From an uncultured Chloroflexia bacterium (lineage in GTDB: Bacteria > Chloroflexota > Anaerolineae > Anaerolineales > UBA4823): 64,000 nt of DNA. A program made the translations under genes and the position numbers. The notes below the pieces were generated by a model, which had not been told where the DNA came from, did not search any database, and worked only from the letters and a program-made list of their open reading frames with translations. The DNA lies in contig CAWIYB010000005.1 in the NCBI GenBank assembly GCA_963840255.1, positions 899,406 through 963,405 of the forward strand, read 5' to 3'. Shown one piece after another: positions 4,917 to 17,240 of this stretch. Position 1 is the stretch's first letter. Each line of letters opens with the position of its first letter.

Positions 4917-6101
4917 CTATCGTAGTCCAAGCTCCATCCTTGAAATGACCAGGCGTTGGATCTCGCTCGTTCCCTCGTATATTTCAGTGATCTTGGCATC
5001 TCTAAAGTAACGTTCTACAGGCAGCTCCTTGCTGTAACCCATTCCACCATGGATCTGCACGGCTGAATGAGCCACGAACATGGCCGTCTCGGAGGCGAAC
5101 AGCTTAGCCATGGCGGCTTCCCGAGTAAAACGCTCACCGGTGGTCTTGGCACGCTCCTTTGCCAGGGCTGCGTTATACACCAGCAAACGTGAGGCTTCTA
5201 TTCGTGTCTTCATGTCAGCAATCTTGAATGAGATGCCTTGAAACTCGCCAATCCTGGAGCCGAAGGCTTCCCGCTCCCTGGCGTAGGTTACACTGGCTTC
5301 ATAAGCCGCCTCGGCGATCCCCAATGCCTGGGCTGCAATCCCAATCCGCCCTGCGTCCAGCACTGCCATGGCGATCTTGAAACCGTCACCCTCTTCACCC
5401 AGGCGGTCTTCCATGGAGCAGCGGTAATCCTCAAATAGAATCTCGCTCGTTGCGGATGCGCGGATACCCAGCTTGGGTTCCTTCTTTCCCCGCACGAATC
5501 CAGGTTTGTTCGTATCGATCAGGAACGCACTGATCCCGCGGTGCTGCTTATCAGGGTCGGTCATGGTGAACATCACCACGTAATCTGCCACTGGTCCACT
5601 TGTCACCCACGACTTACGCCCATTGATGACATACCCCTCCCCATCTCGAACTGCCCGGCTGCGCATCGTCCCAGCATCCGATCCGGACATCGGCTCGGTG
5701 AGAGAATAGGCTCCAATTGCCTTGCCTGAAGCGACGGCGGTCACATACTTTTGTTTTTGGGCCTCGGTTCCAAACTTCAGTATGCCGTTGCAAAACAGGC
5801 TGTTATTCACCGACATGATGGTGCCGTGGGCAGCATCGACTTTGCATATTTCCTCGAGTGCCAGGACGTAAGCCAGGGTATCCATCCCTGCCCCGCCGTA
5901 GTCTTCGGGCACCTCGATCCCCATGAAACCCATTTCTCCCATCTTCTTGATCGTCTTGGAAGGAAATTCACCGGTCTCGTCGAACTCCGCCGCAACCGGC
6001 GCGATTTCTTTTTGCGCAAAATTACGCGCCGCCATACGGATGCTCTCGTGCTCTTCGGTAAACGGAAATAATAATCCACTGCCAGCCATCGTATCCTCCA
6101 C
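4917..6101 (-). CDS. acyl-CoA dehydrogenase (short/medium-chain type)
   Basis: 394 aa. Motifs YSLTEPMSGSDAG and QIHGGMGYSKELPVERYFRDAKITEIYEGTSEIQR (C-terminal catalytic Glu region) are typical ACAD signatures. The real start may be the second or third Met (MAGSG...). Confidence 0.9.
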   Translation of the reverse strand: MEDTMAGSGLLFPFTEEHESIRMAARNFAQKEIAPVAAEFDETGEFPSKTIKKMGEMGFMGIEVPEDYGGAGMDTLAYVLALEEICKVDAAHGTIMSVNNSLFCNGILKFGTEAQKQKYVTAVASGKAIGAYSLTEPMSGSDAGTMRSRAVRDGEGYVINGRKSWVTSGPVADYVVMFTMTDPDKQHRGISAFLIDTNKPGFVRGKKEPKLGIRASATSEILFEDYRCSMEDRLGEEGDGFKIAMAVLDAGRIGIAAQALGIAEAAYEASVTYAREREAFGSRIGEFQGISFKIADMKTRIEASRLLVYNAALAKERAKTTGERFTREAAMAKLFASETAMFVAHSAVQIHGGMGYSKELPVERYFRDAKITEIYEGTSEIQRLVISRMELGLR

Positions 6102-6232
6102 ATCAAGTGTAAGTAGGAATGATCGTGATTATAGCATGGGACATATCTTTCCTAATATTGGGCCTGATTGCACCCTGCCTTAAAAGCAGGAGTGGTATAT
6201 ACTATAGATAGAGCAGGTTTTGTTTCATCGGT

Positions 6233-8077
6233 ATGCTGTCCAGGATCAAAAACGCACTCATCGGCTCCCCCCTTCCCACCGCACAGCTGGGCGAGAAACG
6301 CCTGAATAAAATCCGGGCGTTGGCAGCCTTCTCTCCAGATGCCCTCTCCTCAATCGCATATGCTAACCAGGAAATTTACCTCGGATTGGTAGTTGCCGGT
6401 AGTGCCGGCTTGTTGTTGGCATGGCCGATAGGCATAGCCATTACTATCCTTCTAGCGGCTGTCGCTTTGTCTTATTACCAGACCATCCAGGGTTACCCAT
6501 CAGGCGGCGGTTCCTACGTTGTAGCGCGCGAGAATTTAGGCACCCTGCCCGGTTTAGTAGCAGCAGCTGCACTGTTAATCGATTACCTGCTGACCGCCGC
6601 AGTCAGCCTAACGGCTGGGGTGGAAGCCATCGCCTCCGCATTCCCAGCACTCTATGGTATAAGGATCGAAATTGCACTGGTTTTACTCCTCATTATAACC
6701 ATCGCCAACTTGCGCGGCTTACGCGAGACTGGTACTTTGATGTCCATCCCGGTGTATTTATTCCTGTTCACCTATCTACCTATGTTGCTGTACGGGATGA
6801 TTACTTTATTCACCCATGGACGGGTCCCGATTGCTTCTGTAGCACCTCCGGCAACGCAACCGCTAACCCTTTTCTTGGTCATGCATGCCTTCGCGACTGG
6901 TTGTACTGCCCTGACTGGCATCGAAGCCATAAGTAATGGCGTCCCTTCATTCAAGCCTCCCGAATCAAAGAACGCCGGGCAAACACTGATCGTGATGGCG
7001 GTCCTAATGGCTATCCTGTTCGCTGGGAGCATTGGTTTAACCCAATTCCTGGGTATCATTGCCGGTCCACAGGAGACTATTCTCTCCGCTTTAGCACGAA
7101 GCTTGCTCGGAAGCGGACCGGCATATTTCCTCATCCAGGTCTCTACCCTTCTCATCCTGGCGGTGGCTGCCAATACCAGCTTTGCGGGTTTTCCACGCCT
7201 GGCGGCTATCCTGGCCAAGGATGGGTTCCTTCCTCGCCAGTTTACCGGCCTGGGTGACCGCCTCGTCTTTAACAATGGAATCATTTCACTAGCGATAGCC
7301 ACAGGTGTTTTGATCATCCTTTTCGGTGGGAAAAGCCACCTTTTGATACCACTATTTGCTGTAGGCGTTTTCATGGCGTTTACTCTTTCACAAGCCGGGA
7401 TGGTGAGGCATTGGTGGCGTGATCGTAAGGATAACTTACGCTGGCTTCCAAAAGCGGCCATCAATGGTTTCGGTGCGCTTGCTACATTTGCCACACTACT
7501 CATCGTCGGTATCAGCAAATTCCGGGAAGGCGCCTGGATCGTTATATTGCTTATCCCGATCATCGTCGTTGTCTTCCAGCGCATCCACCAACACTACCAG
7601 GATGTGGGTAAACAGCTCTCTTTGCGTGGTCTTCCTCCTGATATTAAACCCTCCCCGCCCATGCGCCTGGTTGTGCCTGTCTCAGGGGTGCACCGCGGTA
7701 TCATCGACGCCATGGACCTGGCTCAATCCATCTCGAAGGATATCACCGCCGTTTATATCGAGCTTGAACCCGGATCAGGCGAGCAGATGCGCAAGGAATG
7801 GGAATGCTGGTGGCCGGATATACCCCTGGTTGTTCTGCCCTCACCCTATCGCTCGATCATACAACCGCTTCTCGATTACCTGGACGAAGATGACCGCCAG
7901 CACAACGATGGCACATTGGCGGCAGTGGTGCTGCCTGAATTCGTTCCTGCCCGCTGGTGGCATCAGCTACTGCACAACCAGACTTCCCTGCTGCTCAAAG
8001 CTGCTTTGCTCTACCGCCGACGTACACAGGGCTTCCAGCGCATCATCATCGACGTCCCCTACCATCTTAAGAAATAA
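6233..8077 (+). CDS. APC-superfamily amino acid/polyamine permease with a ~170-aa cytoplasmic C-terminal extension
   Basis: 614 aa. About 12 predicted TM helices followed by a soluble tail. The N-terminal region (LSSIAYANQEIY, GGGSYVVARENLG) resembles APC permeases. Confidence 0.75.
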   Translation: MLSRIKNALIGSPLPTAQLGEKRLNKIRALAAFSPDALSSIAYANQEIYLGLVVAGSAGLLLAWPIGIAITILLAAVALSYYQTIQGYPSGGGSYVVARENLGTLPGLVAAAALLIDYLLTAAVSLTAGVEAIASAFPALYGIRIEIALVLLLIITIANLRGLRETGTLMSIPVYLFLFTYLPMLLYGMITLFTHGRVPIASVAPPATQPLTLFLVMHAFATGCTALTGIEAISNGVPSFKPPESKNAGQTLIVMAVLMAILFAGSIGLTQFLGIIAGPQETILSALARSLLGSGPAYFLIQVSTLLILAVAANTSFAGFPRLAAILAKDGFLPRQFTGLGDRLVFNNGIISLAIATGVLIILFGGKSHLLIPLFAVGVFMAFTLSQAGMVRHWWRDRKDNLRWLPKAAINGFGALATFATLLIVGISKFREGAWIVILLIPIIVVVFQRIHQHYQDVGKQLSLRGLPPDIKPSPPMRLVVPVSGVHRGIIDAMDLAQSISKDITAVYIELEPGSGEQMRKEWECWWPDIPLVVLPSPYRSIIQPLLDYLDEDDRQHNDGTLAAVVLPEFVPARWWHQLLHNQTSLLLKAALLYRRRTQGFQRIIIDVPYHLKK

Positions 8078-9583: not shown

Positions 9584-12500
9584 GTGTATATGCTTAAGAA
9601 ATTCGTTACCATTTTCGGCGGTGACCCTAACAAGAGAGCGCTCACCAAGTCTAACGATGTCGTCGACCAGATCAACAACCTGGAACCGGAGTTCGAGGCG
9701 TTGAGCTCTGAAGAGCTGCTTGCCAAGACAGTTGAATTCCAGTCACGCCTGGCCGATGGCGAGACCCTGGATGCCCTGCTACCCGAAGCCTTCGCTGCCG
9801 TGCGTGAAGCCAGTAAGCGCACCAACGGTCAACGCCATTATGACGTACAGCTGATCGGCGGCATATCCCTGCACCAGGGCAAGATCGCCGAGATGCGCAC
9901 CGGTGAAGGCAAGACCCTGGTGGCTACCCTGCCCCTGTACTTGAACGCACTCACCGGAAAGGGCACCCACCTGGTGACGGTGAACGACTACCTGGCACGG
10001 CGTGACGCCCGCTGGATGGCACCCATCTATAATGCGCTTGGGCTCAGTGTGGGCGTGCTGCAGATGGCTGCCCGCACAGAGAATGGAAAGAAAGCCTTCA
10101 TCGTTGACCTGGAGAAAACCTCCCCGCACGAAGACCAGCACCAGCTGCGCCTGGTGGACCGCCGCGAAGCCTACGCCGCCGACATCACCTACGGCATTAA
10201 CTCGGAGTTCGGCTTCGATTACCTGCGGGATAACATGACCATGAGCCTGGAAGAACGCGTCCAGCGCGGCCACTATTACGCCATCGTAGACGAGGTCGAC
10301 AACATCCTCATCGATGAAGCCCGCACCCCACTGATTATCTCAGGACCTGCCCAGGACGATGCCGAATGGTATATGCGCATGGTGCAGGTGGTACGCCAGC
10401 TGCGTGCCGAAGACTATGAGCTAAATGAGCGCGACCGAAATATCACCCTCACCGAGATCGGTGAGCTGCACGTCGAGGAGCTGCTGGGTGTCGCACTAAG
10501 CGACCCCGAACGCCCAGAGGACGTCACCCCCGAGCAGGCACGCTTGAGAGGCTTCCTCGAGCAAGCCTTGCGCGCCCAGTTCCTGTTCAAACGCAATAAA
10601 GACTACCTGGTCCAAACGGGTAAGGTTGTCATTGTCGACGAGTTCACCGGACGGTTGATGCCAGGGCGGCGCTGGTCGGATGGGCTTCACCAGGCGGTTG
10701 AAGCCAAGGAAGGTGTGCGCGTCCAGGCGGAGAACGTCACTTACGCCACCATCACCATCCAGAACTACTTCCGCATGTACGAGAAGCTGTGCGGGATGAC
10801 CGGTACTGCCCTCACCGAAGCTGAGGAGTTTGACAAGATCTACAAGCTGGATGTGATCGCCATCCCCACCAACCTGGAATACCAGGCTTTGCGCGAGGGG
10901 TCTGCTCTCTCCCTGCTCGAAGACAAGGATGAGCAGGGCTACAAGTTCCGCTATTATGCCTTGCAAAAAGATCCCCAGAAGCAGCCTGTATTCTTCCAGC
11001 GCAAGGATTTCCCGGATGTCATTTACCGTACCGAGGAGGTGAAGTTCCGCGCCATCACCAGTGAAATCCTGCGCTTCCATGCCATGGGTCGCCCGATGCT
11101 GGTAGGCACCACTTCGGTCGAGCTTTCCGACCACCTCTCCACCCGCATGCGGGCTGAGCCCCTGCGCAAGCTAGCCCAGGTAGCCATTCTGCGGCGGGCA
11201 TGGTTGGAGAAGAACAACCGCGAGGAGGATGGGCGTATTGTTGAAGAGCTGCAACCGCTCAATGCACCCCTCGACCAGCTGCAGGTGCCCGATATGCGCA
11301 AGATGGCGCGTGACCTGGGCATCTCCTTCAACCCCGAAGACCCCGAGAACATCACCCGTCTGCTGGATATCCTTGACCTGCCAGCTGAGGATGCCGAGCG
11401 GCTGAAGACCGACCTGGAATCGGGCATCCCCCACCAGGTGCTGAATGCCCGTAAGCACACCGAAGAATCCCAGATCATTGCCGATGCAGGTGCTTTTGGA
11501 GCAGTTACCATTGCTACCAACATGGCCGGACGCGGCGTCGACATCAAGCTTGGAGGCGAGCTGCCTGAAGGCGTAATCGACTCGGTCAACCGCATCCTGC
11601 GACGCGCCGGGTACGCCGACCCATATGACATGCGCCATGAAGAACGGCGCCAGGCACTCGAGGCACTCACCCCCGAGCAAACCGGCATCTATGAAGCCGA
11701 TATCGCCAGCTTCCTGAGCTACATGCAGCATATGCAGCGTGTTAAAGAGCTGGGCGGTTTGCATGTGATCGGCTCGGAGCGCCATGAAGCCCGCCGTATC
11801 GATAACCAGCTGCGCGGCCGTGCTGCCCGCCAGGGCGATCCCGGCTCGTCACGCTTCTACCTCTCCCTGGAAGACGAGCTGATGCGCCGCTTCGGTGGAG
11901 GGCAGGTCGAGTCGATCATGCAGCGCATGAAGATTGACGATGCCGTGCCCATGGAAGTGGGGCTGGTCAGTCGCCTGGTTGAGCAGTCTCAGACGCGGGT
12001 GGAAGGCGCCAACTTTGACGTCCGCAAGCACCTGCTCGAATACGACGACGTGCTCAACACCCAGCGCCAGCGCATCTATGGTCAGCGCGACTTAATCTTC
12101 ACCAAGGCTGACCTCTCGGAGGACGTGACCGAGCTATTGGGCACTGAAGTCAACCGCCGGGTACCTGAATCGCTGGCAGATGACGAAGGTCCATGGAAGC
12201 TGCTCGCCTGGCTGGACCAGGTGCAGCCACCGCTTGACCTGGGTGGGATACTCTTCCCGTCCTACTCGCTCAAGCTGCTGGTGGACCATCTTGCCAGCCA
12301 ACAGAAGGGCTACAACTCAATGGAGGACCTGCGCGATGCCCTGCTTGGGTTGGCGAACGAAGCGCTTAAAGCCGAGGAAGAACACTTATTACGCACCATC
12401 GACAACCTGCTGGAAACGAGCCGTGAGCGCCTGGAGAGCCAGGCGAAGGAACGCCTGGAAGCACTCGACACATTCTACGAAGGGCTGAGGATGGGCGAGG

Positions 12501-13742
12501 CGGACGATGCTGCCCCGCGCACCTCGCGAGACCTGCTGGATGAGCTGGTGGGCATGGTGCATGTTAACATCCGCCTGACCCCGGAGGAACTGCGCCTGCT
12601 GCGGGATGACCCCGACAAGGTACGCAAGACCATCCGCACCCAGGTGGAGAACGCGGTCGCCGGGCAGTCGGTGATGCGCCTGGTGGGTGCAATTGAGCGG
12701 CGCCTGGAAGACACCCTCGACCTCGAGGTTACCCAGCTGGACAGCTCGGATTGGGAAGCGATGGCAGACCAGGTCTACCATTCCACCCAGCTTGTGCTGA
12801 CCAAGAGGCGTGAGCGCCTGTTGGGCAACGGCGCCGGACCAGGATCCGGCCAGCTGGCACATGACCTGGAAAGTGCGCTCACGAAGATCACCGGACCCGT
12901 CACCACCAACCACATGCTGGGCTTGCTGTTGATGATGCCCCAGGGTACCAAGGCTTCCTTCGACAAGAAGACCCACCGGCGGGTCTTGCAGCGTACTACG
13001 CGCTTGAGCTACATCTACCTGGCAGCCCGCCTGCTGGAGGGGCGCCCCCCGGAGGATATTACTGAAGAGGTGCTGAAGCATCTGCAGAGCGCACAGGAGA
13101 CCATCCGCCGGGCCTGGGGAGCGAGTGAATTCTCGCGCCTGGCGAATGCCACGCTGCCAGAACTCGATCCCACACTGCGCGACACACTTTGCAGCCTGCT
13201 GGGTGAAGAGACCTGTGCCAGCCTGGAGACCCAACCCCTGCAAAGCCTGGACCGTGAGCAGATCATCAAGATCATGGACGAGCTGGGCCGTCGCGCCCTC
13301 ACCCAGGTCTACCGCCAGCTGCTGCTGGGGGTGATCACCGAGCTGTGGGTGGACTATCTGACCCAGATGGAAGCGCTTGCGCGTCTCCATCGGACTGGAA
13401 GCATATGGTCAGCGTGACCCGCTGGTGCAGTATAAGAGCAAGGCGTTCGAGCTGTTCCAGAATCTGCTCAAGGATATGCGTTCGGGAGTGATCGCGCGCA
13501 TGTTCACCTACCGCCCCCGCCTGATGAGCAGCGTACAGAGCGAGATGCACCGACCCACCACGGTGGAAGAATTCGAGGCGGAGACGGATGCCGTCACAGC
13601 GAGCGGTGATGGGGAAGAAGCCGAGGAGCAGCCGGCAGATGGGGCTGACCTTGAAGCTGAGGCCGAAGAAGAACCGGTGGGTGTGCAGGACAACCAACCC
13701 CAGCTCAGCAAGTCGCAGAAGAGGCGCAGGCATAGGAGGTAG
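9584..13742 (+). CDS. secA: preprotein translocase ATPase SecA, unusually long (~1385 aa) and interrupted by a 1-nt frameshift near 13379
   Basis: Motor motifs MRTGEGKTLVATLP, VDEVDNILIDEARTPLIISG, GMTGTALTEAEEF, TNMAGRGVDIKLGG and GGLHVIGSERHEARRIDNQLRGRAARQGDPGSSRFYLSLEDELMRRFG. ORF 9584..13417 ends in out-of-frame residues after ...WVDYLTQMEAL. The conserved continuation [26 protein letters not shown] is in the next frame (ORF 13377..13742). Confidence 0.9.
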
Positions 13743-14190
13743 GAATGTCAGCGACCAACATAAAGATTAACACGAAGGACACAAAGTACACAAAGGAAAC
13801 GCATAATAAATATTAATCCATTACAGGATTAGGCAATAAGGGTGGAATGTTTAGGTACTTTAGATCAGGCGGGATTGAAACCCAGTTATCGCTCACAGAT
13901 AACGTTGGCGACTTTGTCATAAAAAAAACAGAAAACGAAACGGAACGAAGATTGCAGCAAAAGCGGCTGCGATTTGGTATACTCCTAACATACAGGTGTG
14001 TACGTTGGGATGAATTGAATTGATTAAAAAAAATAAATGAATTCAAATAAGCTCCTGGATGAATATCCAAAATAACAGCGGGGGAAATAATGGTTGAAGA
14101 TCTCGTAAGCATGACCTATTGCATATCAGTTATGCGTTGGGTTTCGGCAAAAATACTGCCAAATCCCCATCTACTCCTGGCTGAGGATTA

Positions 14191-14263
14191 ACATTTGCAA
14201 CAGCGCAGGGGAGGGATTTTTAATGTTGCATTCGGGATTCCTCCCCTGCGCTTCTACAAATGT
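14191..14263. other. long imperfect hairpin (two-tier stem)
   Basis: ACATTTG (14191-97) pairs with CAAATGT (14257-63). AGCGCAGGGGAGG (14202-14) pairs with CCTCCCCTGCGCT (14240-52). The loop is 25 nt. It lies ~450 nt downstream of the secA stop in a gene-free gap. Confidence 0.5.
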
Positions 14264-14276
14264 CATTCCTCATTTG

Positions 14277-14371
14277 GTGAGTAATAACACTTATACCGGT
14301 AAAGATCAACCGGTATACGGATGTCATTATCTAAAATGAAATAAAGATGACATCCTAATGTATCTACTCAC
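14277..14371. repeat. 95-bp inverted-terminus element A (candidate small structured RNA or MITE)
   Basis: Termini GTGAGTA (14277-83) and TACTCAC (14365-71) enclose two hairpins: TACCGGT-aaagatca-ACCGGTA (14294-14315) and GGATGTCAT...ATGACATCC (14319-14355). Confidence 0.55.
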
Positions 14372-14410
14372 TATAACTGGCATTATGTAACCTATCGTGA
14401 ATAAGAAAGA

Positions 14411-14472
14411 GCGGATTGCTTCGTCGAGCTTCGGTATCTAGTAAAAAGCATTGGATTCTGTGAACGCCCTCC
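14411..14472. repeat. conserved ~62-nt core, copy 1
   Basis: gcggattgcttcgtcgagcttcggtatctagtaaaaagcattggattctgtgaacgccctcc aligns with 14811-14873 (gattgcttcNtcgNgcttc ... aagcattggattctgNgaacgccctc). Confidence 0.55.
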
Positions 14473-14564
14473 TTCTCCGAAAACCAACGGGGATACCGCA
14501 ACGACAATTAAAAGGTTCGCCGCGGTGGATTTATAATGATTCTTGGCGAATAATGGTCGAGGGG

Positions 14565-14772
14565 GTGAGTAATTACCACTCTTACCGGTAAAGACCGACC
14601 GGTACACGACTGCCTTTTACCGATATAACCCAATCGGTACAGGAAACTACTGTTTGATATGGGAAACCACCATATCAACTTTTGTAGGCAGTCCTACCGG
14701 TAAAGACCAACCGGTATACGAATGCTTTCATCTTAATTAACCATAGGAAAGTATTCTAATGTAATTACTCAC
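14565..14772. repeat. 208-bp inverted-terminus element B (candidate structured RNA or MITE)
   Basis: Perfect 12-bp termini GTGAGTAATTAC (14565-76) and GTAATTACTCAC (14761-72). Internal hairpins are TACCGGT/ACCGGTA (14583-14604), TACCGAT/ATCGGTA (14618-39), TTGATATGG/CCATATCAA (14654-78), TACCGGT/ACCGGTA (14695-14716) and GAATGCTTTC/GAAAGTATTC (14720-56). The helix ACTGCC/GGCAGT (14609-14 / 14687-92) encloses the middle two. Confidence 0.6.
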
Positions 14773-14810
14773 AGAAATCGAGAAAAAAACCGATTGATCT
14801 ATATTGTAAA

Positions 14811-14873
14811 AGGCAGATTGCTTCTTCGGGCTTCAAAGTGTGGTAATAAGCATTGGATTCTGAGAACGCCCTC
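14811..14873. repeat. conserved ~62-nt core, copy 2
   Basis: aggcagattgcttcttcgggcttcaaagtgtggtaataagcattggattctgagaacgccctca is the second copy of the core at 14411-14472. A solo left terminus GTGAGTAATTAC follows at 14942-53. Confidence 0.55.
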
Positions 14874-15072
14874 ATCGCAATGACAGTTAATGGGAAATTA
14901 TTATTCGAATTTGCTTACATTTTTACCTACGAGTGCGAACAGTGAGTAATTACATTCTAATTATAGCACAAATGTTCTAATCCACAAGGGGTTTAAGAAG
15001 ATTTAAGGGAAGCGTAGGGTAGCGGTTGGCGGAACAGCAGGGGCGACTAGATATAAAACCACCACCAACCCT

Positions 15073-15567
15073 TCAACTGTTCCCACTGGCTTTCAACGCA
15101 CGCTCGATGTCGCGAACCCGGTGGAAGGTAGAATGACCGACGAGGTCATATGGCCATTCCTTATTACGCTCCTTGCTGGTGAACCATTCATCGGTGGCTG
15201 CTCTCAGCGCAGCGAGCACGTCCTGCTGGACCTGCCTGTGCCAGGCGAGCACATCCTGGGGAGAACGATTGTGCCAGCGCAAGTAGATGAGATGGTTGGC
15301 GTCATTCGTCTCCAGCCCACGTTCCTCGGGAAGTCGCTTTTGCCGCCGGGCGGAGCGGGCCAGGTCCGCTTTCCAATGGGTGATATGGGCGACAGCATCT
15401 TTCACCGTCCATGGGTCTTTTGTCTCTGGTCGGATCAACAGCTGCTCCCAATCTTCAGCGCTTAAACCCACCAGCAACTGATCCAGGAGCTTGAACTCAC
15501 TGATGGCACGCTCGATTACTTCGTCACGGGTGTGATGCATGGTTTGTAAGACCTCCTGCCAGGTCAA
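15073..15567 (-). CDS. DinB/ClbS-like four-helix-bundle protein (function uncertain)
   Basis: 164 aa. The pattern ...LSAEDWEQLL...PWTVKDAVAHITHWKADL... resembles the DinB-superfamily / ClbS(DUF1706)-type His-containing helix. Coding status is well supported by length and composition; the family call comes from memory only. Confidence 0.5.
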   Translation of the reverse strand: MTWQEVLQTMHHTRDEVIERAISEFKLLDQLLVGLSAEDWEQLLIRPETKDPWTVKDAVAHITHWKADLARSARRQKRLPEERGLETNDANHLIYLRWHNRSPQDVLAWHRQVQQDVLAALRAATDEWFTSKERNKEWPYDLVGHSTFHRVRDIERALKASGNS

Positions 15568-15809
15568 GCATCAAGTTATAGCATGAGCCATAGGCATGAC
15601 ATAGAAAAGAGTGTTACTGACCACCTTATTACAGGTGAGTATACCAGCTGTCAAGCCATTGACCGAAAGGGTCACAGGCATAATGGTAGCGGTGTAATGG
15701 CTGCTAAGTTTATCGATCAGTGGTTGCTTGGCTATGATTAGACTGGATACAGCTTCCCCAATAAATCAGGGGTAAGAATAACGATAACTCGGGTATATAA
15801 TCTAAATTA

Positions 15810-17094
15810 ATGAACTTAACCCTGGAAAATAAATATCAGCTGCTGTTGGATATATCGCATAAGGTGCGAGACACGTTAGACCTGGACGAGATTATGGAGC
15901 ACTTACTCGATATGGTAAAAACCGTGCTCCATTACGATGCTGCCGGCATCTTTGTGCTTAATCAAGACCTGGTGCGCGGGCGGCATGAGTCGCCGCTGGG
16001 GATGATCGCAGGAGTTGCCCGACGAGGTTTTGATCCCAACCCGCCACAAGAAGATGCCATGCTCATGCGCGGTCAGGGGATTACGGGCTATGTCATCCAG
16101 AATTGTGAGAGTGTGATCGTGCCCGATGTACGCCTGGACCCGCGCTATGTGGTTGGACGGCGGGCAACACTCTCTGAAATTACCGTACCGATCATCCGTA
16201 ACGAACGCGCGATTGGTGCCCTCAACCTGGAGAGTGACCGGTTATCCGCCTATACGCCCGACGACGTTGAAGTACTTCAGTTTTTCGCCGATGCGGCGGC
16301 GATTTCAATTGAAAAAGCAATGCTGCACAAGCAGCTGCTCGAGCAGGAGCTGGTTGGTAAGCAGCTCGAAACTGCACGAGAAGTCCAGTCCAGGCTGCTA
16401 CCACACAGTGCACCTGATCTATTGGGTTACGATATTGCCGGGATTTGTATTCCAACAGATGAGATTGGCGGAGATTATTTTGATTACATCCCTTTATCCC
16501 ACAACCGACTTGGACTGGCAGTAGCTGACGTATCCGGGCACGGCATTCCTGCCGCGCTGGTAATGACTGCGTTTCGAGCTTTACTACGTATTAAAGCGCT
16601 TGGGAATTCAAGACCTGCCAATATTGCAAATACGATAGACCGGCTTCTACCGGAATTTACCGGAAACAAGCATTTTGTCACCGTCTTGTATGCCGTATTG
16701 GACGCTGAATCAGGCGACCTGACCTATGTCAGCTGTGGGCATCCACCGCCTCTTATCCTGCACGCAAATGGCGAAATGGAAAAACTAAACCGCCATAACC
16801 CTGCGCTCGGGCTTGCCCTCGGGATTTTTCCAACCCTGCATCACAATGACGAGGAAAATCATCTGGCAGAAGGGGATATATTAGTTTTATATACAGACGG
16901 GGTAACTGAAGTGATGAACCAGGATAATGAATCCTTCGGAATACAGCGCCTGGTGCAAGTAATCAGGGAGAACCAACAATTGGATGCAGAGGATTTTAAT
17001 TCTAAAAATTATCCGGGCGGCCGGGGTTTTCACCGCAAATTATGGCTTTTTGGACGATTTCACCCTGGTTATTGTGCGACGAGAGAACGGCTAG
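15810..17094 (+). CDS. GAF-domain PP2C/SpoIIE-type serine phosphatase (RsbU-like), with a 1-nt frameshift near 16994-17008
   Basis: N-terminal GAF (ITGYVIQNCESVIVPDV...EITVPIIRNERAIGALNLES) followed by SpoIIE/PP2C blocks (GGDYFDYIPL, LAVADVSGHGIPAAL, VLYTDGVTEV). The called ORF runs to 17192 in an aberrant tail. The family-typical C-terminus ...IIRAAGVFTANYGFLDDFTLVIVRRENG* is in the adjacent frame, ending at TAG 17092-17094. Confidence 0.8.
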
Positions 17095-17240
17095 AACAAC
17101 CTTATGCCGCGATATCCGCATGGTCATTATTGGGTAAGATAAGAGATTCCTGGTCAGTGCCAGTGCACGCCCTCCGCAAACTCGTGGGGTGAATATTAAA
17201 CCAGCCGTTTAGAATTTGTATACTACTAAGGAAGAGTGTT

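Follow-up and report, generated by a model that had tools for sequence, protein, structure and literature searches.

What occupies the 1.3 kb between two convergent genes of an uncultured Chloroflexia bacterium? The gap, at positions 13743–15072 of a 64,000-nucleotide (nt) stretch (the whole of which is called the window below), separates secA (plus strand, stop at 13742) from an open reading frame (ORF) of the DinB_2 family (minus strand, stop at 15073). It holds no gene and is AT-rich, the GC content dropping from ~0.60 to 0.36–0.46. A sequence-only reading had correctly noted both properties and had interpreted the gap as a degenerate tandem super-repeat of hairpin elements, either paralogous structured small RNAs or a nest of miniature inverted-repeat elements. 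Our analysis points to a layered structure. We think it likely that the gap is a gene-less copy of a lineage-specific host cassette (~13868–15021, minus strand) carrying three miniature insertions of IS66 type. We hold the IS66-type miniature elements with more confidence than this, and the history of the cassette with less. The parts are listed in Table 1.

Repeated and Structured Segments of the Gap

A repeat finder recovered the repeats described earlier (termini spaced by 288 and 377 bp, hairpins, and a duplicated core). The 12-nt terminus GTGAGTAATTAC occurs in direct orientation at 14277, 14565, and 14942, with inverted copies at 14360–14371 and 14761–14772. The hairpin TACCGGTAAAGAnCnACCGGTA, termed hp1, is present three times (at 14294, 14583, and 14695), and a core of 66 nt is present twice (14406–14471 and 14808–14873, 80% identical). 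A near-perfect hairpin of 91 nt spans 14182–14272. Three of the motifs gave 4, 3, and 2 matches, compared with 0.17, 0.00, and 0.00 expected from shuffles, and the repeat motifs are confined to the gap, with zero occurrences elsewhere in the 64 kb.

The two segments previously delimited as elements A and B are indeed structured (z of −6.5 and −9.1 relative to shuffles), as is the 91-nt hairpin (z of −8.9). The cores fold no better than shuffles (z of +0.5 to −0.2 and +0.9/+0.4). The hairpins are bounded by TAC...GTA. Covariation, which had been proposed as a check, was evident in their stems: after positional trimming of the loops, pairing held for 94.3% of the cells from 28 distinct copies, against 82.4% in shuffles and 32–45% in slid controls. 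Seven of the ten pairs of the second hairpin, hp2, had changed on both sides across copies.

Copies in relatives had also been put forward as a check, and an exact scan for hp1 found them to be dispersed. With one genome per species, the scan returned 38 loci, 37 of them in metagenome-assembled genomes of Anaerolineales/Chloroflexota, a single genome holding as many as 11 on separate contigs (related loci are given L numbers here). The canonical unit consists of GGTGAGTAATTAC, 5–6 nt, hp1, hp2 with a copy-specific stem, CTAAT, and then either GTAATTACTCACC or a conserved segment beginning TATAGCACAAATGTTCTAATCCACAAGGGGTTTAAG, which we call the tail. Scanning metagenomes for the tail yielded at least 120 loci. 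Judged by the coverage of the window by related loci, 14276–15022 is repeat-derived and 13743–14275 is mostly locus-specific.

Table 1. Features of the gap between secA and the DinB_2-family ORF, in window coordinates
Feature	Position	Strand	Description
Spacer past the secA stop	13743–13867		Only 13761–13799 matches other loci
3′ module	13868–14166	−	GGGATTGAAACCC; CTTCGTTCCGTTTCGTT at 13933–13950; terminator-like hairpin at 13954–13970; A-rich-loop hairpin GAATTGAAT...ATTCAA at ~14010–14057
X0, probable degenerate miniature element (~122 bp)	14167–14288		Weak left end CCATCTACTCCTG (14167–14179); right end GGTGAGTAATAAC (14276–14288)
S_A, hairpin module	14289–14359	−	hp1 at 14294–14315; variable-stem hp2 at 14316–14359, ending CTAAT; element A of the earlier reading, with flanking transposon ends
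X1, miniature element (217 bp)	14360–14576		Left end GTATCTACTCAC (14360–14371); right end GGTGAGTAATTAC (14564–14576)
S_B, longer hairpin module	14577–14760	−	hp1 twice, nested hairpins, and hp2, ending ATTCTAAT; interior of element B of the earlier reading; z of −9.1
X2, intact miniature element (193 bp)	14761–14953		Ends GTAATTACTCAC and GTGAGTAATTAC; core 2 (14808–14873) as cargo
Tail, putative promoter module	14960–15021	−	−35 TTGTGG at 14982–14987; extended −10 TGCTATAAT at 14960–14968; upstream conserved block to ~15021

Miniature Elements with Target Duplications

Comparison of L006 with L023, and then of all loci, set the bounds of the mobile segment. The mobile segments are those that hold the cores, and they are bounded by 5′-GTAATTACTCACC...GGTGAGTAATTAC-3′ (the left end being GTAATTACTCAC(C)). 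A first parse, in which A and B were themselves miniature elements with GGTGAGTAAT ends, was dropped because 8-bp duplications flank the opposite parse. The nest of miniature inverted-repeat elements envisaged by the sequence-only reading was right in kind, since the family is dispersed and has an autonomous IS66-family partner, but its units had been drawn inside out: A and B are pieces of host cassette lying between insertions, not transposons.

X2 is the clearest case. Its ends are identical to those of the autonomous insertion sequence (IS) described below, and a copy of a perfect target duplication of 8 bp, ATTCTAAT, adjoins it on each side (14753–14760 and 14954–14961, 0 mismatches). Removal of X2 together with one copy of the duplication gives the canonical hp2-ATTCTAAT/TATAGCAC junction seen in uninterrupted copies. 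The terminus at 14942–14953, earlier taken for a solo left terminus, turns out to be the right end of X2. The flanks of X1 differ (ATCCTAAT and CACTCTTA) and contain no target duplication. Its cargo consists of ATAACTGGCA... and core 1, and homologous cargo lies between the same ends in L023, L006, L024, L039, L041, and L002. X0 has the 91-nt hairpin as its cargo and is likewise without a duplication; its left end, read by eye, matches that of X1 at 8 of 13 positions. L003 holds this hairpin as cargo too, inside a complete element of 224 bp that has both ends and whose 8-bp duplication, CCTTCTAT, is perfect. Most simply, X1 and X0 would be recombinants between copies at different hot spots, or remnants of earlier copies.

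Flanking 8-bp repeats with at most one mismatch were found for 12 of 33 candidate elements (10 of them perfect) and for 7 more in metagenome loci. The 12 include X2 and others in L002, L003, L006, L011, L029, L018, L024, and L039. The duplicated 8 bp are those that precede TATAGCAC in uninterrupted copies. Because they vary with the local hp2 arm (ATTCTAAT, GTCCTAAT, GTTCTAAT, CCTTCTAT, and others), they are real duplications rather than a common motif. The window elements share hallmarks of transposable elements of the miniature inverted-repeat kind (MITEs): they are short, noncoding, and bounded by terminal inverted repeats, and their inner ORFs have no family match. A duplication of parental length flanks X2, and neither X1 nor X0 has one. 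The cores of the window are thus cargo of miniature IS66-type elements.

Two further sequences touch on these elements. Relative to L002, the window has a 34-nt insertion at 13885–13918 that starts with GTTATCGCTCACAGATAACG, a sequence sharing 75% identity with X2's left end; the insertion may be what is left of a transposon end. In L001 (8660–8800), miniature-element cargo at the orthologous secA locus contains about six tandem 22-nt units (GAATCCCCCAGAACCTAGGGGA).

An Autonomous IS66-Family Partner

An autonomous element with the same ends lies at L034 4984–6423 (1,440 bp), in the same spot by the tail and with an 8-bp duplication, ATCAGTGT. It is filled by one ORF of 461 amino acids (4988 to 6373) that matches Pfam PF03050 DDE_Tnp_IS66 (1.1e-35) and NCBIfam NF033517 transpos_IS66 (1.6e-71; 241.5 bits, with a cut-off of 180). 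The only other ORF of at least 100 amino acids (120 amino acids, 5558–5920, opposite strand) is wholly contained in the transposase ORF. Three further transposase-bearing copies, in L104 (full-length, 79% amino-acid identity), L066, and L117, all abut a tail. The transposase-bearing elements sit in related Anaerolineales genomes. L034 and L104 have the same 13-bp ends, which are all that the miniature elements share with the autonomous element. The miniature elements are presumably mobilized by the IS66 transposase.

Members of the IS66 family generate direct repeats of 8 bp, and their inverted repeats begin with GTAAGCG (PMC11946415). Within the family, the L034 element has the features of the ISBst12 group: a DDE_Tnp_IS66 domain, an 8-bp repeat with GTAA-initial ends (GTAATTACTCACC), and a single transposase ORF without tnpA or tnpB. 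It resembles ISDge4 of Deinococcus geothermalis, an ISBst12-group element with one transposase of 449 amino acids and an 8-bp direct repeat (PMC12898284). Both encode a single DDE_Tnp_IS66 transposase of ~450–460 amino acids and make an 8-bp duplication, and their ends are close in sequence (GTAACTGCTCAGCA in ISDge4 and GTAATTACTCACC here). Unlike known members of that group, the elements described here belong to Chloroflexota hosts (Anaerolineales), have many noncoding derivatives of 76–540 bp that retain only the 13-bp ends in common, and strongly favor two fixed sites within a single host repeat. A search of full-text literature found no paper naming both ISBst12 and MITEs and none on miniature elements in Anaerolineae; IS66 goes unmentioned in a review of prokaryotic MITEs from 2024.

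Insertion at Two Fixed Positions

In 34 of 164 tails, exactly 8 nt separate TATAGCAC from the tip of an element, and no other offset below 70 nt was observed; the remaining 130 tails are uninterrupted at this hot spot and represent paralogous, not orthologous, empty sites. At hp1, a tip is found 5–6 nt away in 19 of 72 copies and within 3–7 nt in 21. The two hot spots thus lie 8 bp downstream of the predicted −10 box of the tail and 5–6 nt before hp1. In the window, the right-end tip is 5 nt from hp1 in S_A and 6 nt from it in S_B. Because both hot spots flank the hairpin module, modules become bracketed by inverted transposon ends, and this bracketing produces the apparent terminal-repeat hairpins and the ~290/380-bp super-repeat. 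What had looked like a degenerate tandem super-repeat is accounted for by insertions at two hot spots on either side of the hairpin module.

The same grammar, (right end, hairpins, left end, cargo)n, right end, duplication, and tail, describes the window and other loci; in the window the order is X0, S_A, X1, S_B, X2, and the duplication with the tail. In L001–L003, secA is followed by a long noncoding array with the same kinds of pieces in a different order, and that of L001 is inverted relative to the window, despite flanking genes that are 92–95% identical in DNA. Beyond the repeat nest of L003 (5511–9897), the place of the DinB_2 gene is taken by an ORF of 980 amino acids that lacks any Pfam domain and by a transposase gene of IS30-like type (HTH_38, rve).

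The Host Cassette

Read on the minus strand, the tail has the form CTTGTGG-ATTAGAAC-nnnn-GTGCTATAAT, that is, TTGTGG-N16-TGCTATAAT with a 16-nt spacer and a perfect extended −10 element. This arrangement suggests that the tail acts as a promoter of sigma-70 type. The spacer holds GAAC-N4-GTGC. The tail was recovered in 37 copies, and its conservation profile, which confines variation in the spacer to 3–4 positions, agrees with a promoter. Among 33 copies, only the N4 of this motif varies (14966–14977 in the window, minus strand). The LexA box of Gram-positive type is GAAC-N4-GTTC, from which the spacer motif differs by one mismatch; the window offers no SOS gene for comparison, and the copies linked to uvrA (see below) read AAAC-N4-GTGC. 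That the spacer holds a LexA box is speculation.

In every locus examined, hairpin modules point the same way as the tail. In many loci the motifs of the 3′ module follow one fixed order and direction with respect to the putative promoter, and where a small gene is present (see below) they come directly after it. The A-rich-loop hairpin (GAATTGAAT...ATTCAATTC) and CTTCGTTCCGTTTCGTT come after the gene in gene-bearing copies, and the window has both in matching order and orientation. Conservation of this module with L002 is patchy, and no gene lies between it and the leader. The cassette is dispersed, reaching 10 or more copies per genome, and has no ends or duplications of its own. A search for a transposase next to it, by all-against-all comparison of 418 ORFs from the 38 loci, returned only housekeeping families and an unrelated IS5-type fragment. 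In L078, L069, L164, and L165, an alternative leader of ~170 nt (CCCCTGGCACGGGCAATGCGGAG...GGCACTGCAAC...CCCGTGCCGGGGG), which has no Rfam match, replaces the hp1/hp2 array ahead of the small gene.

Relative to neighboring genes, the cassette shows no orientation bias (46:35 and 41:34, with crude gene calls). A role as a portable promoter for neighbors was rejected for lack of such a bias, although the module does lie upstream of uvrA in two Anaerolineae genomes. In these (L032 4330–4560 and L013 6200–6450), uvrA is directly downstream of a cassette-type promoter sequence (AAAACATTTGTGCTATAAT) and an hp2/hp1 leader, and in L125 a tail is located 770 nt upstream of a uvrA paralogue. An ordinary repair gene appears to use the promoter module.

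The Small Gene of Fuller Cassettes

A family of small proteins (125–175 amino acids, N-terminal motif GAPxGNxNAxKHGFY) recurs downstream of the tail. All 29 small genes, including those of two loci retrieved via the protein alone, have a co-oriented tail at most 1.5 kb upstream; conversely, the gene comes after 17 of the 93 tails for which enough sequence was available. Examples are L007 1266–1736, L038 3005–3457, and L165 8001–8432, with ~26 more. In three genomes one copy neighbors dnaE, and at some loci two copies stand in tandem. L162–L164, three IMG/VR contigs classed as viral, contain the tail promoter module along with the small gene, which occurs twice in two of the three.

The family numbers 178 relatives in databases, none of them named and none with a Pfam domain. 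It weakly resembles the terminase small subunit (27.5–33.7 bits with profile NF040601, for which the cut-off is 120; E of 5e-5 with phrog_1889), a likeness that falls short of a family-level profile match and that we treat only as a lead. The structural model has three long helices at a predicted local distance difference test (pLDDT) score of 66. Defence-system profiles gave no match to the small genes. In the window, a profile of the small gene run over all six frames of 13700–15100 scored −1.8 bits at best, against 160 bits for a positive control, and tblastn found nothing. The gene was presumably lost from the window copy.

Assessment of the Layered Reading and Its Alternatives

Could the gap instead specify a functional structured noncoding RNA? 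The putative promoter of the tail would then drive a ~1-kb, hairpin-rich transcript of the minus strand, or processed small RNAs, with the transposon ends as passengers. The near invariance of the promoter module, even in gene-less copies, would fit such a unit, as would the strong covariation of hp2 stems, the folding of the modules far beyond shuffles, and a terminator-like hairpin with a T-rich run at the far end on the same strand. However, the modules fold equally well on both strands, as DNA palindromes would, and the conserved cores are unstructured. Rfam 15, applied to 13000–16000 at a permissive threshold, produced only generic microRNA-hairpin models on the 91-nt hairpin, at half the gathering score, and on eight related loci it identified tRNAs only; the window contains no tRNA or transfer-messenger RNA gene. 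G:T pairs slightly exceed A:C pairs on one strand of the stems (26/325 versus 12/295), but the excess favors the strand opposite to the direction of the promoter, and a larger set gave 19 versus 10 (p 0.14). The missing orientation bias toward neighboring genes and the different, inverted array of a relative with 92–95% identical flanks also argue against an RNA gene, which we regard as improbable. The earlier proposal of paralogous structured small RNAs fails for the unstructured cores and may apply only to the hairpin module, whose stems covary and which lies downstream of the conserved promoter module. Selection on the hairpins may act on DNA or on RNA, and the wobble-pair asymmetry does not decide the strand.

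The other explanations we weighed are far less probable. That short palindromes bounded by conserved TAC...GTA form mosaic extragenic arrays, often beyond the 3′ ends of genes, recalls repetitive extragenic palindromes (REPs) and bacterial interspersed mosaic elements (BIMEs), host palindromes that a REP-associated tyrosine transposase would have spread, the IS66 ends being secondary. IS1397 reportedly targets BIMEs, and IS targeting of hairpins would follow that pattern. The modules are nevertheless tied in fixed order and orientation to the promoter module, no small transposase-like ORF recurs beside the arrays, and the only recurrent neighbor is the small gene, which has no Pfam domain and so no match to a Y1 transposase. 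We consider this origin very improbable, and slightly more so the two remaining possibilities. A site-specific inversion system, in which alternating 12–13-nt sites shuffle segments before a fixed promoter (a shufflon or invertible promoter), would explain why the sites alternate in orientation (+ − + − +) across the gap and contain a palindrome (GTAATTAC), why the whole array is inverted in L001, and why one type of cargo lies either way round with respect to the tail (window and L002). Yet these sites terminate an IS66-family element that carries a transposase, with 8-bp target duplications of varying sequence that inversion does not make. The idea was rejected on the constant co-orientation of hairpin module and tail in every locus examined and on the lack of a recurrent recombinase next to the arrays of 38 loci. 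Nor is the gap at all likely to be a decayed protein-coding gene with incidental repeats. Its cassette type does carry the small gene in other copies, and ORFs of 99 and 71 amino acids can be drawn in it (13813–14112 and 14392–14607). Neither ORF has a Pfam match, and the small-gene searches of the gap described above were negative. The second ORF falls inside a miniature element, and the region of the first aligns with L002 through frame-breaking indels that are not multiples of three. The non-protein-like character assigned to these ORFs by the sequence-only reading thus holds.

Several observations weigh against our own interpretation of a cassette with IS66-type insertions. Only X2 among the three window elements has a target duplication, and the left end of X0 is weak. 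The 64-kb window contains no copy of the transposase. We found no orthologous empty site, so that mobility is argued from uninterrupted copies that are paralogous. Because hp1 or tail patterns were used to collect the loci, the association of autonomous copies with the tail is biased. A simple consensus promoter scan missed the tail because its −35 hexamer matches at only 3 of 6 positions. The host cassette is multi-copy but lacks both ends and duplications. The likeness of the small protein to a terminase is far below the family cut-offs, and its model is of modest confidence.

We nevertheless favor a two-layer origin. The first layer would be the gene-less version of a multi-copy cassette of the Anaerolineales lineage, placed on the minus strand and composed of a promoter module, a hairpin leader, and the 3′ module. 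Three miniature IS66-type derivatives with the ISBst12 layout, 13-bp ends starting GTAA, and an 8-bp duplication would then have landed in it at the two preferred sites, 8 bp past the −10 box and 5–6 nt before hp1. X2 is an intact simple insertion; X1 and X0, lacking duplications, are most simply read as recombinants or remnants. Still more tentatively, and against our overall expectation, the host cassette itself may be an undescribed multi-copy unit composed of a promoter with an operator-like spacer, an expandable hairpin leader, an optional small gene, and a 3′ module. Gene-bearing (~1 kb) and gene-less (~0.3–0.45 kb) forms would then resemble an autonomous/miniature pair serving as the IS66 landing pad, and the window promoter would still fire an RNA of the hairpin array.

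Neighboring Sequences

Just past the secA stop, the motif AACACGAAGGACACAAAGTACACAAAGG (13761–13799) has counterparts of 82–93% identity in nine other Anaerolineales loci; it belongs to neither the transposon nor the cassette. Within secA (13370–13420), the window has one extra T (GCGCTTGCGC, compared with GCGC-TGCGC in L001 and L002) that splits the gene into two frames, 9584–13417 and 13377–13742. Because relatives (L001–L003) carry an intact SecA of 1,383 amino acids, the split is probably an assembly indel and not the mark of a pseudogene. The neighboring GAF-SpoIIE phosphatase (15810–17192) has relatives of 84–98% identity in Anaerolineales/Chloroflexota assemblies. Looked up by exact sequence, the RsbU-like protein of the window has no entry in public collections. 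It matches the 98% identical relative only to residue 396 of 460, and typical relatives have 423 residues. This suggests a second indel near the 3′ end of the phosphatase gene, in this assembly, in that of the relative, or in both.

Relation to Known Systems and Implications

In kind, a transposon nest in a repeat belongs to a known class. Insertion sequences are said to target repeated palindromes elsewhere, IS1397 and ISKpn1 in enterobacterial BIMEs and IS110-family elements in REPs. In those systems, as here, a hairpin-rich intergenic host repeat reportedly serves as the landing site and extragenic nests result. The present elements differ in using an IS66 transposase, not one of the IS3 or IS110 families, and in making an 8-bp duplication. 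The landing site is also set by distance from the −10 box and the hairpin, not by the interior of a palindrome loop as is reported for the IS1397 type. The host arrays themselves resemble BIME/REP mosaics in being modular arrays of short palindromes that have conserved bases at their flanks, are extragenic, including between convergent genes, and are variable in copy number and order. Unlike those mosaics, they are polar relative to the promoter module, no Y1 transposase was observed beside them, and their stems vary with compensatory changes instead of falling into a small number of fixed REP types.

The neisserial Correia element, a promoter-bearing bacterial MITE, offers another comparison, being a small dispersed intergenic repeat with sigma-70-like promoters for neighbors (PMC10969869). 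The cassette-type promoter and leader directly upstream of uvrA in two genomes are reminiscent of it. Here, however, the putative promoter resides on the host cassette, which has no ends of its own, and not on an element with terminal inverted repeats, and about one copy in five precedes a small gene of its own.

As selfish DNA it is of an ordinary sort, and noteworthy mainly for the distance-defined targeting of ISBst12-group miniatures by the −10 box. A conspicuously empty kilobase is explained as layered selfish DNA and not as a hidden gene or an RNA operon. The ends (GTAATTACTCACC), the 8-bp duplication, and the two hot spots supply an annotation grammar for gaps in Anaerolineales genomes. 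These repeats appear to break assemblies, since many of the related contigs are only ~1 kb long. The uncharacterized cassette of promoter, hairpin leader, and small gene merits separate study. The autonomous partner adds a Chloroflexota member to the little-studied ISBst12 group, one with precise targeting past a −10 box whose choice of target is experimentally approachable.

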